A DNA stretch of 64,000 nucleotides, from the NCBI GenBank assembly GCA_944385895.1, contig CALWYZ010000009.1:1859-65858 (forward strand). Direction: 5' to 3'. Within the stretch, counting starts at the first letter, position 1; each line of letters opens with the position of its first letter. Below are positions 16,203-18,813 of this stretch, in pieces. Made by a program: the position numbers and the translations under genes. This DNA comes from an uncultured Clostridia bacterium. GTDB taxonomy: Bacteria > Bacillota > Clostridia > Oscillospirales > QAKW01. Below the pieces are notes generated by a model, which saw nothing but the letters and a program-made list of their open reading frames with translations, was not told where the DNA came from and made no database searches.

Positions 16203-16229
16203 TTTTTGCATATGAATTCGAACTCTTAC
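16203..16229 (+). repeat. Left copy of a 27-bp direct repeat, tttttgcRtatgaattcgaactcttac
   Basis: Matches 18787-18813 at 26 of 27 positions. Confidence 0.85.
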
Positions 16230-16288
16230 GTTTCTCATGACCCTGACAAAACTAAACAGTTTAAAAGACGATAACCGATTATTGGTAA

Positions 16289-16729
16289 TTATAACTGTTG
16301 CATCATTGCTGAGATTGTTTGCTTCGCTATTCCAATAGCAATATCATGGGCTAAGCTTTCAAGGAAATGAAGAGTGTGATTACCAACTTTATTTGCAATA
16401 GATTTGGTTTTCTCCCATACAGTAGGTTCTTTAATGGTTTCGGCAAATTGATGTCCTTTCATTGTTACATCCATTATTACACAATCGTTTATGTATGTTG
16501 CCTCTTTATCTTTAGGCTGCTCGCATGATGTTTTTATGTATTCAGATTCTTTTAATTTTAAAACAGAATACATTATGTCCTTCTTTTGAAATTGCTGTAA
16601 TTCATTTGATTCATACATTTCTTTCAGCTCTATGATTTCACATTTCCAAATATATCCGGTTTCGGTATAATCAAGATTTTTGATACAATATAAAAGTACC
16701 GCTCTTAAACAATCTATGTTGATTCTCAT
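16289..16729 (-). CDS. YjcQ/DUF2513-like winged-helix protein
   Basis: The N-terminus MRINIDCLRAVLLYCIKNLD...IMYSVLKLKESEYIK resembles the YjcQ family by recollection. Not verified by a search. Confidence 0.45.
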   Translation of the reverse strand: MRINIDCLRAVLLYCIKNLDYTETGYIWKCEIIELKEMYESNELQQFQKKDIMYSVLKLKESEYIKTSCEQPKDKEATYINDCVIMDVTMKGHQFAETIKEPTVWEKTKSIANKVGNHTLHFLESLAHDIAIGIAKQTISAMMQQL

Positions 16730-16771
16730 ATTATCGTTCCTTTCCTTCTTTTTAATGAAGATAATTTCTGT

Positions 16772-18151
16772 TTATTTCAAATAGTATTTGTTCATATTCC
16801 CGCTTTTTTGCTTAACTGCATCCGATATTTTTTTCTTTATTAATTCTATTGAAATATCTTCCCAGTAATTCACATAAATCAAAATTATTCCATTTTCTTC
16901 GCTCAACCTTTTTTTTAATACATCCCTTCCTCTTTGTTCTTCAAAATGTTCTTTTCCTCCAAAATAGTCGATAGGCTCAAAGTGTTGCTTACCTTGATAT
17001 TCAAAAGCGATTTTTTCTCCATAAACAAAAACGTCGTAAGACATCTGCCCTTTTTTTGTGTGTAAAAAATACGGCCTATGTTGATGAACGACCTCGTTCT
17101 TCGAAAAAACTTTTTTAACGCACTCATACATTAATTCTTCAGATTTCCATCTGCTTTCAGTTCTTATATATTCCGTTGGTTGCAAACACTTTTGTAAATA
17201 CTTTGCTATGTTGTTTAAGATATCTTCATACTTTTCTGGAAAGAAATCTGCTTTTTGATAATCAATAAATGTCCAATATTTTATACAATTACTGGGAATA
17301 AATCTTGGGTGTAAATTATGGTCTTTTTGGGGATTAGTTTTCCGTTCCATGTAATATTGATAAAGCTTACATAATAAAAGTTCGTCGAATTCACTTATGT
17401 TGTTGTATGCTAAAAACTCAGGAAACCTATCCGATTTTTCTAATAAATCTTTTCTTACTTGTGGTTTGCCGTCAATAAACTCAAAAGCCATATACACTTG
17501 TCTTGTATTCTTCTCCATATCAGAAATGGCATTTAATATATATCGTGTTACATAAGGAGATGTTGTACTGTCAACTGCATATGCGTGTTTCCCATTGCAG
17601 GTAAGTTCAAAAATAATAAATGTATGCGGCATTCCTTTCCAATTATCAACTCTATTTTTTAATTCTAAAAAAGGAAAAGCATCTGAAACTGCATAAAAGT
17701 TTGTTTTTAAATGATCAAGCTTACCTGCGTTAAACTCTTCCTCTTCAAGCAAATTCAAACTTCTTATAGGTTTATCAATATTCGCGTTGAAAAACTTGTA
17801 TATATAAGGAGCATACAAAGCATCTTTACCGAAAATCGCTTTTCTTAGTTTTGTGGCATTAATTTTGAAAAGCTCGTTATAAGTTAACTCTTCAATAACC
17901 AGTATATGTCCTGTCAACGTGCTAAATCTTCCGTAATTATTTTTTGAGTAATAATCCACATCATCATCAGTTAGGTCAATTATTTTTTTAATAGCAAAAT
18001 AAACAACAAAGCAATCTTCAATAACATATACTCTCGCATACTCACTCATATCGTAACAAATGAAAGTATATTTATCAAAGAACATTTCAAATACTTTTGA
18101 TGACTTTTGATAAAATGCTGATAAATCATTGTAAAAATCCTTAAGATTCAT
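16772..18151 (-). CDS. 459-aa protein: unknown N-terminal region plus a C-terminal PD-(D/E)xK-type (Vsr/DUF559-like) endonuclease motif
   Basis: The C-terminal SYDVFVYGEKIAFEYQGKQHF...GRDVLKKRL...GIILIYV resembles the D...(I/V)E.(D/Q)G..H core of Vsr/DUF559-type nucleases. Confidence 0.45.
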   Translation of the reverse strand: MNLKDFYNDLSAFYQKSSKVFEMFFDKYTFICYDMSEYARVYVIEDCFVVYFAIKKIIDLTDDDVDYYSKNNYGRFSTLTGHILVIEELTYNELFKINATKLRKAIFGKDALYAPYIYKFFNANIDKPIRSLNLLEEEEFNAGKLDHLKTNFYAVSDAFPFLELKNRVDNWKGMPHTFIIFELTCNGKHAYAVDSTTSPYVTRYILNAISDMEKNTRQVYMAFEFIDGKPQVRKDLLEKSDRFPEFLAYNNISEFDELLLCKLYQYYMERKTNPQKDHNLHPRFIPSNCIKYWTFIDYQKADFFPEKYEDILNNIAKYLQKCLQPTEYIRTESRWKSEELMYECVKKVFSKNEVVHQHRPYFLHTKKGQMSYDVFVYGEKIAFEYQGKQHFEPIDYFGGKEHFEEQRGRDVLKKRLSEENGIILIYVNYWEDISIELIKKKISDAVKQKSGNMNKYYLK

Positions 18152-18313
18152 ATTATTACCTCATATGCCAATCATATCAACATAATTAAGAAATTATCTG
18201 ATAGAGTTATTACTAATCGTTTATATTATCATATCATATTTTTTCATTTCTTTCAATTCCTACAGAAAATGTCGTAAAATTGTTTCAATGCATTCAATAT
18301 AGGAGTTTAAAAT

Positions 18314-18607
18314 ATGAGAACATACACCAAAGAAGAAAAACAAGCGGTCATTGACCGTGTTATATCCGGTGAGCCGCCGGCACATATCCTCGCCGACACC
18401 GACATACCCAAGAGTACCTTTTACAGTTGGCAACGCATTTACCATGAGGAGCAAAACGCTGCCAATAGGAGAACGGTGGACATCCGCAATTTCCATTTGC
18501 TCGAAAACAAGGTCGCACAGGAAACTGCAATACAAGACTCCCAAACAGAAGGAAGAGGAATATACCTTGAAGGACGTAGGTTTATAAGACACGTGCAGTC
18601 GGACTAA
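18314..18607 (+). pseudogene. IS3-family OrfA-like HTH fragment (no OrfB/DDE part)
   Basis: MRTYTKEEKQAVIDRVISGEPPAHILADTDIPKSTFYSWQRIY is typical of an IS3 OrfA N-terminus. No transposase catalytic ORF follows. Confidence 0.5.
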
Positions 18608-18786
18608 TGGGTTCGAAAAGGTTTGCTTTTAAATCTTCGGATTGTAAAATTTGCTTTTTTCTGTTTTTAGTCCGGCTGACAAAAACAAAATGCGACCTCG
18701 AAAAGCCGCATAAATACTGGGTTTTATAATAAAAACACCATTGAGTCTGAACTTGAGGGTTCAGATTTCAATGGTGTCTTTAGCTG

Positions 18787-18813
18787 TTTTTGCGTATGAA
18801 TTCGAACTCTTAC
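18787..18813 (+). repeat. Right copy of the 27-bp direct repeat
   Basis: tttttgcgtatgaattcgaactcttac. Like the left copy, it is preceded by an unrelated hairpin. Confidence 0.85.

Follow-up and report, generated by a model that had tools for sequence, protein, structure and literature searches.

The islet between the SLH gene and tRNA-Pro

An islet of AT-rich DNA in a contig from an uncultured Clostridia bacterium (CALWYZ010000009.1) was analysed. The stretch considered comprises 64,000 nucleotides (nt) and is called the window throughout. The islet carries the genes of a nuclease-like protein of 459 amino acids (aa) and of a 146-aa DUF2513 protein. It lies between a gene for an SLH protein, its left neighbour, and a tRNA-Pro gene. 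In a preliminary description, made from the sequence alone, it had been taken as a unit of about 2.6 kb bounded by two 27-bp direct repeats and as a candidate for a new defence or selfish module. The comparisons presented here suggest that it is probably one of two degenerate mobile modules which are stacked behind the tRNA.

The features listed in that description were confirmed at the stated coordinates. The 27-mer, TTTTTGCATATGAATTCGAACTCTTAC, is located at 16203-16229 (copy A) and, with one mismatch, at 18787-18813 (copy B). These are the only two copies in the 64 kb; none was expected from 100 dinucleotide-preserving shuffles. Between them are two co-oriented genes on the minus strand. 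The open reading frame (ORF) of the 459-aa protein extends over 16772-18151, that of the 146-aa protein over 16289-16729, and the gap is 42 nt. The GC content is 0.24-0.33 over 16350-18300 compared with 0.41-0.46 in the SLH gene, the IS3 and the tRNA regions. Further upstream, 12900-14900 is as AT-rich as the islet. A lone IS3 OrfA fragment inside the repeats was confirmed at 18314-18607 on the plus strand, its helix-turn-helix matches being weak. The SLH gene and tRNA-Pro were verified as neighbours by Pfam and ARAGORN, respectively. The earlier statement that a catalytic integrase or transposase gene is missing agreed with our ORF analysis: no integrase or recombinase ORF was present within 16170-19044 or elsewhere in the window.

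Read on the minus strand from tRNA-Pro(cgg) (19045-19121; ARAGORN and Rfam), the region opens directly after the CCA end with a hairpin, H_G, the inverted repeat GAAAAAGCGACTTGTT..AACAAGTCGCTTTTTC (19044-19011). Next comes a Gut-1 RNA module (18814-19010) with four GTGAAAT and three ATTTCAC heptamers and small hairpins between them. It is followed by 27-mer B with the adjoining CA-G, a terminator hairpin (18777-18735), an IS3 remnant, the 459-aa gene, the DUF2513 gene and 27-mer A. Copy A continues into a 33-nt outer arm which ends with CA. Beyond is a terminator-like hairpin of the host, read from the sequence (16162-16137; GCTGAACCC..GGGTCCAGC, T-run on the minus strand).

Copies of the islet and its terminal repeat

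The 459-aa protein was found with identical sequence on many human-gut metagenome contigs. Two blocks were shared with the window, both at 99.9% identity and both with unrelated flanks on either side. The block 16170-18786 was present in L001-3, 5, 6, 8 and L106; its proximal neighbour was the CCA end of tRNA-Leu(tag), its distal neighbour a hairpin unlike that of the window. The block 16167-19047 (2.88 kb; L004 and L007) was located between a tRNA 3' fragment and a third hairpin, its proximal end being at H_G/tRNA and stopping at 19047. Including the window, near-identical copies thus sit in three genomic contexts, which indicates that the islet moved recently. This supports the reading as accessory DNA which moved recently and sits at a tRNA hotspot, and with it the earlier proposal of a selfish or mobilised module. 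The proposed borders, on the other hand, did not hold: the shared blocks do not correspond to 16203-18813. The travelling unit begins on the left 33 nt beyond copy A and ends on the right in one of two ways, at the inner edge of copy B or at a tRNA CCA end. At the proximal junction the window reads ..AAAAA-CA-G|CTAAAGA and L001 ..GCAC-CA-T|CTAAAGA. The hairpin at 18735-18777 directly follows tRNA-Leu(tag) or tRNA-Cys in other contigs. In the window's own strain other contigs end at 16188 and 19095, breaks which are expected of repeated DNA.

Public metagenomes were then scanned with the 22-nt core of the 27-mer as the query, which yielded 17 gut-metagenome loci. The conserved unit was about 60 nt long and corresponded to 16170-16229 of the window (minus strand; TGTCTATGGGCTACAAAAAAGATATTTTCGGCATTTTTGCGTATGAATTCGAACTCTTAC). 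It was kept at 90-100% in these 17 loci and in L001-L008. This distal terminal repeat is composed of a core TG/CA (16170-16171), an outer 'P arm' (16172-16194), a spacer, and an inner block at 16203-16229, identical with copy A of the 27-mer. To the left of the 60-mer each locus had another sequence ending in a terminator-like hairpin, and more than 13 distinct hairpins were counted. To the right, directly after ..CTCTTAC, five unrelated interiors were observed: large serine recombinase genes (10 loci), the islet, a non-coding module matching Rfam Gut-1, an AAA_18 kinase-like gene, and a 471-aa gene with an intact IS3 element and a tRNA array behind it. By this comparison the 27-mer appears to form the inner block of a terminal repeat which belongs to an element family, and not the attachment (att) core of one insertion. 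The preliminary description had allowed for a common dispersed repeat unrelated to insertion sites. Dispersed it is, given the 17 loci; unrelated it is not, for it marks recombination junctions. In IMG/VR there was no exact match to the 22-mer or the distal arm, and PLSDB plasmids contained no match to 16100-19130.

The 27-mer is an imperfect palindrome of 22 bp (CGTAAGAGTTCGAATTCATACG). It also resembles the 3' end of a tRNA, with GTTCGAAT-N13-CA compared with GTTCGAAT-N14-CA in tRNAs. The likeness is confined to a generic T-loop plus acceptor; there is no match to the 3' end of tRNA-Pro. A 21-codon ORF (MGYKKDIVGIFAYEFELLRFS; 16175-16240, plus strand) begins inside the terminal repeat. The differences between repeat copies in this ORF are mostly at third codon positions or conservative (F/I/V, G-I/A-V). 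It may be due to chance, or it may encode a small peptide.

Copies A and B were compared in their outer flanks. GCTG just outside copy B is the repeat variant of the Gut-1 modules in L098, and the similarity of copy B to full repeats of the L098a type reaches outward to 18779. The outer arm at copy A is a different variant. Because the outer flanks match different variants and because the same stacks exist elsewhere, we conclude from these alignments that 27-mers A and B are probably the ends of two adjacent modules, E1 and E2, the repeat of E2 being truncated to about 30 nt. Copy B (minus strand) would then be the 5'-truncated terminal repeat of the Gut-1 module E2. The interval 18735-18786 (minus strand) would contain the terminator hairpin (18735-18777) and, by junction comparison, the proximal junction of the islet module E1. 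Comparable stacks were observed in L098, where a recombinase element comes after a Gut-1 module that has a full repeat, and in L117/L119, where the order is nuclease element, Gut-1 module, another repeat and one more module of the Gut-1-like kind. They run head to tail, each module ending in a repeat.

The RNA motif in E2 was identified with Rfam. Gut-1 (RF01706) scored 90.4 bits at 18935-19011 on the minus strand (gathering score 50), and a weaker inverted copy at 18829-18916 on the plus strand scored 42.7 bits. Gut-1 modules built of a CGACA-type hairpin, the repeats and the 60-nt terminal repeat were located beside tRNAs or other elements in L098, L096, L117, L119 and L004. Hairpins related to H_G, with compensatory changes, were present in L098, L096 and L117. 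To our knowledge the motif has no assigned function, and a literature search for the phrase 'Gut-1 RNA' returned no papers. Two further observations concern these modules and their arrays. The segment 18814-19044 is a dyad of units, each a small variable hairpin plus GTGAAAT; heptamer variants GTGATAT or TATCATCA were seen in L096, L093 and L117. In L117 (2880-3041) and L119 (3825-3920) the array lies between two copies of about 100 nt of host DNA, which consist of a hairpin and the sequence TTTTAATCATCATGAGAGTTATCACGG... This array is downstream of tRNA-Leu(tag) and starts with a partial copy of the tRNA-Leu 3' end, not with an intact tRNA.

Both ends were complete in six independent elements at different tRNAs (L035, L032, L105, L107, L116 and L121); the tRNAs were Tyr, Gln(ttg), Gln(ctg), a Leu-like fragment and others. 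The proximal junction was tRNA..CCA|TCAAAGGGCTACAAAAAAGATAT, the distal junction ..ATATCTTTTTTGTAGCCCATAGACA|hairpin. In every locus examined both junctions were at CA, i.e. tRNA ..C-CA| and ..ATAGA-CA|hairpin. When the ends of L035, L032, L105 and L107 were joined (ATATCTTTTTTGTAGCCCATAGA-CA-TCAAAGGGCTACAAAAAAGATAT), 15-20 of the 23 arm positions were complementary around CA. The joined ends form a 48-bp near-palindrome around this dinucleotide, with ..GTAGCCCATAGA-CA-TCAAAGGGCTAC.. at the junction. L116 and L121 also had both arms. Near their proximal end the complete elements carried an inverted subterminal copy of a 27-mer-like block (GTGAGAGTTCAA..). The distal end of the window copy is canonical for this family. 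Of the two arms the window contained only the distal one; a second, proximal arm was not found in it.

In the 10 loci with a large serine recombinase the stop codon of this gene is 48 nt from the 60-mer. The protein has the domains Resolvase, Recombinase and Zn_ribbon_recom. In L094 three such genes in tandem were present together with PemK; two of the L094 recombinases measure 547 and 537 aa. The contigs L094, L103 and L105 are OLOI01000119.1, JABLTR010028860.1 and ERZ857827 NODE-27, respectively, and samples with contigs of the family include ERR4096492, ERZ918361 and ERZ24773273. Because the gene adjoins the repeat and because the joined ends have the size and symmetry of a large-serine-recombinase attP site, we infer that the recombinase mobilises the element family. 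As for the relatives with recombinase genes, L094 (oriented 108-5281), L103 and L107 look autonomous and have up to three tandem large serine recombinase genes. The recombinases are followed by a gene for a PemK/MazF-type toxin with a pemK RNA motif (RF02913). Several loci are deletion derivatives of such autonomous-looking relatives, with breakpoints at varying depths.

The IS3-family element inside module E1 (18216-18780, plus strand) is internally deleted. Its OrfA' ORF (97 aa, 18314-18607) has an IS3 OrfA-type helix-turn-helix, matched weakly in Pfam and NCBIfam. The intact insertion sequence (IS) in L097 with a 378-aa OrfAB served for comparison. The segment 18216-18518 is 90% identical to its left end, and 18514-18780 is 75% identical to its right-end region. 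In the remnant the left end is fused to the right-end region, and about 1.1 kb including the DDE transposase part is missing with respect to L097.

The nuclease-like protein and DUF2513

The 459-aa protein had no sequence match in Pfam, NCBIfam, PADLOC or PDB, and PDB searches with the protein sequence and with the family profile gave nothing meaningful. PHROG families 9084, 7140 and 559 matched residues ~330-455 only; some of these are labelled homing or intron-encoded endonuclease. An AlphaFold (AF2) model built on 71 homologues had a predicted local distance difference test score (pLDDT) of 87.8, a separate model of the C-terminal domain one of 92.5. Compared with viral structures using Foldseek, the C-terminal domain retrieved the labels restriction endonuclease, DUF2726, DUF559 and homing endonuclease (E 1e-7 to 1e-5). 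In the PDB it matched mostly PD-(D/E)xK nucleases, i.e. R2 RLE, Bax1, Vsr, PvuRts1I, AbaSI, McrC, TnsA and I-Bth0305I; the match to Vsr (1cw0) had a TMq of 0.55. Seven residues, D373, E384, Q386, H390, R409, D410 and K413, were invariant in the 71 sequences and likewise in 30 short homologues. Matches to DUF2726 were weak and were obtained for 21 of the 71 relatives (best E 0.003), the window protein itself having none. A Vsr/DUF559-like motif had been noticed before in this protein. The structural models and profiles support a Vsr/DUF2726/EDxHD-type PD-(D/E)xK nuclease domain at residues ~330-455, with the alpha-beta fold of restriction endonucleases. The N-terminal region (residues 1-~320) presumably recognises the target; its alpha-beta module might conceivably be another nuclease-like domain in degenerate form. 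Family members of 550-610 aa (P0021, P0056, P0084 and P0103) seem to have one more copy of the first module of ~150 residues at the N-terminus, with the motifs ..IEDSxIxYxG.. and ..IEELTYN... For this reason the N-terminal region would be modular and duplicable.

By these searches the protein seems to found an unnamed family. At E <= 1e-30 it counted about 90 representative clusters, and about 8,000 have the nuclease domain. Family members were found in gut Clostridia, in streptococci and on about 20 IMG/VR contigs. Cultured phages had relatives of the nuclease domain only, and their records call them homing endonuclease or intron-encoded protein. The gene in L009 is 76% identical to that of the window, and 78% at the level of DNA; nothing but this gene is common to the two loci, and the surroundings are unrelated. 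Such a pattern is at most suggestive of a free-standing homing endonuclease gene. In L032, L035 and L040 nuclease homologues without DUF2513 are directly against the same distal repeat. In these three loci the gene of the distant homologue runs into the end of the element, its final codons and stop (..CESSNP*) being inside the T-loop-like inner block of the terminal repeat (GTGAGAGTTCAAATCCCTGA; L032 2555-2578, L035 9157-9180, L040 520-543).

The second protein was assigned with less difficulty. It matched Pfam DUF2513 (PF10711) with 63.2 bits at a cut-off of 29.6, over profile positions 2-98 of 100, and also PHROG 585. This agrees with the YjcQ-like winged-helix protein of the preliminary description. 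Is DUF2513 a constant partner of the nuclease? In about 40 loci with full-length 459-aa homologues there was no detectable DUF2513 homologue within ~8 kb and no conserved neighbour. The exact pair of 459-aa protein and DUF2513 was seen in near-identical copies only. In L004/L007 DUF2513 is broken while the nuclease is intact. The closest relatives of DUF2513 (84-86% identity) always came after a 552-aa protein, with the same 42-nt gap. In this protein an MTES_1575/DUF2726-like nuclease core is surrounded by six zinc-finger repeats of the DUF4379 type. The pair which it forms with DUF2513 is contained in complete 2.5-kb elements at three different tRNAs. DUF2513 relatives of 78% identity came after DUF4379 nucleases of 332-702 aa in other contexts. 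A relative of 45% identity, for which one cluster was examined, was in a phage context without a nuclease neighbour.

The 2.5-kb elements share about 82% identity with the window segment 16166-16735, which holds DUF2513 and the distal repeat. Homology ends at the ribosome-binding site of DUF2513, which indicates that the upstream nuclease was exchanged. Judged from these alignments, the order 'Vsr-type nuclease then DUF2513' would be a recurrent arrangement and the specific pair of the window a recent chimera. Thus, of the gene linkage for which the preliminary description had proposed a co-occurrence analysis, the exact pair was not retained outside near-identical copies, and the looser combination of a Vsr-type nuclease and a winged-helix protein was. 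DUF2513 is a predicted winged-helix DNA binder which seems to be inherited as a block with the distal repeat. Its inheritance with the element end would also fit a role in binding that end.

Neither protein of the window had a match in PADLOC-DB 2.0 at E <= 1, in line with the earlier statement that the pair was not recognised as any named defence system. The sole PADLOC match among relatives was a weak 'HEase' (homing endonuclease) for a DUF4379 nuclease. DUF4379/CapR-like repeats combined with a Vsr/EDxHD domain constitute a class of homing endonucleases in phage group II introns (PMC12350094). In L116-L126 and L133-L137 the nucleases before DUF2513 (332-702 aa) have a variable number of DUF4379 treble-clef zinc-finger repeats and a Vsr-type core. 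The repeat number differs between near-identical loci; these are natural zinc-finger-array nucleases. In L133 (2650-2745), L134 (2540-2640) and L135 (1060-1160) the unit of nuclease and DUF2513 ends with a tRNA-like 3' end (..CGCTACTCCGACCA), after which each locus has a different terminator hairpin. This suggests another tRNA-end-targeting backbone.

Origin and possible role of the islet

We consider it probable that 16170-19044 consists of two stacked, degenerate and non-autonomous modules of one small integrative element family, in which the nuclease and DUF2513 are cargo. The family would insert at the terminal CA of the tRNA CCA, between tRNA and terminator hairpin, so that CA would be the crossover dinucleotide as well as the last two bases of the tRNA. 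In the window the terminal CA of tRNA-Pro would be the proximal junction of the inserted block. The hairpin at 16137-16162, which abuts the distal element end, would be the B' side of the inferred attachment site. Module E2 (18787-19044) would lie beside tRNA-Pro and comprise H_G, the Gut-1 repeats and the truncated repeat with 27-mer B. Module E1 (16170-18786) would be distal to it, with the hairpin, the IS3 remnant, the 459-aa nuclease, DUF2513 and the full repeat with 27-mer A. The large serine recombinase of autonomous relatives would move the family. Since neither module encodes a recombinase, those of the window would have to be mobilised in trans, or they may be fixed. The 459-aa protein would be a Vsr/EDxHD-type DNA endonuclease with a family-specific, presumably target-recognising N-terminal region. 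Most likely it is a selfish homing-endonuclease-like gene product or serves in conflicts between elements; next most likely is an anti-phage restriction-like function.

Several points weigh against this explanation. All five interiors meet the repeat at one identical nucleotide (..CTCTTAC|), which hints at an extra site-specific process at the 27-mer outside the model. The recombinase was assigned by adjacency and site architecture only; among the L094-type contigs, which were retrieved in part, no complete autonomous element showed both ends, and the circular junction of joined ends was not found in IMG/VR. The proximal ends of both window modules are hairpins and not the canonical proximal arm. 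It is thus not evident that the recombinase could excise the window copy. Nor does the model account for the presence of E1 and the Gut-1 module in three tRNA contexts. For the nuclease, Foldseek E-values against solved structures were all weak (> 1e-3), and the N-terminal region up to residue ~320 had no family or fold match. Finally, the empty site was not recovered in the window's own species by look-ups with the SLH protein, the 178-aa neighbour and its 97% and 72% relatives; the contigs obtained break at the tRNA or at 16188.

The same position was also compared in related species. In L113 and L115 the same tRNA-Pro is directly before a terminator and guaA. L114 (7760-14540), from a related species with a 63% identical marker protein, has a different island at this place with genes for DUF6119, T5orf172, a TIR-domain protein, DpnII restriction-modification and TnpV. 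Since the tRNA is followed either directly by the terminator or by a different defence island, the tRNA-Pro site is a presence/absence hotspot.

Could the islet be a single element which integrated site-specifically into a pre-existing 27-mer? The two 27-mers would then be attL and attR, and the empty site would be a Gut-1 module with one repeat. The uninterrupted order of Gut-1 module, 27-mer, 33-nt outer arm and hairpin actually exists in L098, L096 and L117, and, compared with these loci, an insert of 2.58 kb fits exactly between the two 27-mers of the window. The palindromic nature of the 27-mer and its mimicry of a tRNA 3' end are also favourable to an att core, as is the junction of copy B at CA, which is found at tRNA-Leu in L001 too. 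However, other contigs have the islet without copy B, joined straight to tRNA-Leu, and in every context the shared block goes 33 nt past copy A. The halves at copies A and B are different variants which do not reconstitute one original repeat, and the 27-mer adjoins five unrelated interiors, recombinase genes among them. We regard integration into a 27-mer as unlikely. Far less credible is a chance or generic dispersed repeat of the REP (repetitive extragenic palindromic)-like or terminator-associated kind, without a link to mobility and with the AT-rich genes as ordinary strain-specific chromosome. The 27-mer is indeed found in many unrelated loci and always near terminator hairpins. Yet no chance matches are expected in the window, the repeat is a sharp breakpoint between unrelated sequences in more than 13 contexts, and an inverted arm at tRNA CCA ends is its counterpart. 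The 99.9%-identical blocks which it bounds in different genomic contexts already contradict a generic repeat.

The remaining alternative concerns the cargo. The 459-aa protein and DUF2513 could be a new two-gene anti-phage defence, with a Vsr-type nuclease as effector and the winged-helix protein as sensor or regulator, carried as island cargo. DUF2513 follows two Vsr-type nuclease architectures, the 459-aa type and the DUF4379 type (332-702 aa), in several distinct contexts. The hotspot holds TIR, DpnII restriction-modification and T5orf172 genes in a related species (L114), flanks of the L001 type contain AbiEii and AAA_15/21 genes, and the single-protein restriction enzymes PvuRts1I and AbaSI use a Vsr-like domain. 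Opposed to this, the proteins and their relatives had no significant PADLOC defence match, only the weak 'homing endonuclease', and in 40 of 40 homologue loci the 459-aa family was solitary. In L004/L007 DUF2513 is disrupted next to an intact nuclease, and its distant homologue (45% identity, one cluster) is without a nuclease neighbour. Moreover, both the nuclease domain and the partner with zinc fingers are of types described as homing endonucleases. A defence pair is therefore doubtful, and nothing points to defence specifically. Stacked modules with a selfish cargo remain our preferred explanation. A wider version of it is possible and is offered tentatively: an undescribed family of elements in gut Clostridia may be defined by the ~60-nt repeat together with the proximal arm and the Gut-1 modules. 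Its members would enter at the CA of the tRNA CCA and accumulate in arrays between tRNA and terminator, with Gut-1 RNA as a structural part and nuclease plus DUF2513 as a self-propagating homing module rather than as passive cargo. The nuclease might then cut unoccupied or rival sites, or DUF2513 might act as an accessory or directionality factor by binding to the T-loop-like repeats near the ends.

Among known systems, elements with large serine recombinases (phages of the phiC31/Bxb1 type, Tn4451/Tn5397, SCCmec) have joined ends which, as in complete relatives of the islet, make an imperfect palindrome of ~48 bp around a central dinucleotide, a recombinase gene beside one end, and precise insertion without a long target duplication. 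The tandem recombinase genes of L094 are reminiscent of ccrAB in SCCmec. In contrast to these elements, the gut family targets many tRNA genes, after CCA and between tRNA and terminator, and its distal end has an extra conserved inner block, the 27-mer. Most of the copies seen are non-autonomous or decayed, 0.3-3 kb in size and arranged in arrays; that of the window has neither recombinase nor proximal arm. Islands and mobilisable elements which use tyrosine integrases share the tRNA hotspot, the AT-rich cargo, direct repeats at module borders and a presumed mobilisation in trans. However, the repeats of the window do not reproduce the 3' end of tRNA-Pro, the tRNA is neither interrupted nor reconstituted, and there is no tyrosine integrase in the window or its relatives. 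Integron cassettes, pdif modules and minis resembling miniature inverted-repeat transposable elements are likewise short modules which end in one repeat and are arranged head to tail beside a fixed anchor, and their interchangeable interiors also join at one exact nucleotide. In the gut family, by contrast, the repeat has neither the sequence nor the structure of attC or dif, a tRNA end takes the place of attI as anchor, and no IntI or Xer is indicated.

As to the nuclease, the Vsr/EDxHD homing endonucleases (I-Bth0305I; the DUF4379/CapR-like homing endonuclease genes of introns, PMC12350094) have the same fold, the motif D..E-Y-Q-G-x-Q-H..RD..K, the same modular build of a presumed recognition part and a nuclease, and a sporadic distribution across mobile elements and prophages. 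The usual partner of DUF2513 is exactly the zinc-finger-array type of the intron-encoded enzymes. The 459-aa protein differs by an unrelated region of ~320 aa in place of the zinc-finger repeats, and its gene has no intron or intein context. PvuRts1I and AbaSI combine the same Vsr-like catalytic domain with a separate recognition domain and are lone genes in accessory DNA. Compared with them the domain order of the 459-aa protein is reversed, no SRA-like domain was detected, the similarity is weak (E 0.1-0.3), and there is no PADLOC match.

Within the limited literature covered, the target at the tRNA CCA end, the two-block end of ~60 nt, the arrays with Gut-1 modules and the 459-aa family appear to be new. 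What had looked like a mysterious defence islet would be one decayed copy of small mobile elements which are widespread in the human gut and whose target is the last two bases of a tRNA. If the recombinase assignment is true, this would be a natural large serine recombinase targeting multiple tRNAs, with a 48-bp site and non-autonomous mini-elements. The Gut-1 RNA motif gains a genomic context. The unnamed nuclease family and the arrangement 'Vsr-type nuclease then DUF2513' are two protein leads with candidate roles in homing or conflict. For the mining of defence islands this means that AT-rich nuclease genes beside tRNAs and bounded by repeats need not be defence systems.

Other readings of the repeat were considered and rejected: a class C group II intron (no intron or reverse transcriptase signal in Rfam, no reverse transcriptase ORFs), an IS200/IS605-type insertion 3' of TTAC (no TnpA/TnpB beside the repeat, 60-mer variable on both sides), an integron attC (60-mer without R''/R' core sites), Tn7-like ends (TGT..ACA; no tnsABC genes, no 5-bp duplication), Xer/dif as in IMEX (integrative mobile elements exploiting Xer) or pdif (27-mer unlike dif), an att core derived from tRNA-Pro (no match), and the IS3 element's own ends as boundaries (in L097 the intact IS has ends unlike the 60-mer).

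A last observation concerns the AT-rich DNA upstream of the islet. In 12935-14700 (GC 0.24-0.32) ORFs start with motifs which resemble RHS core ends, ..FAYCGNIPVNRVDPEGE at 12935 and ..NMFAYCKNNPENK at 14496, and these are followed by small ORFs without assignment. By its sequence this region looks like orphan cassettes of toxin tips and immunity genes.

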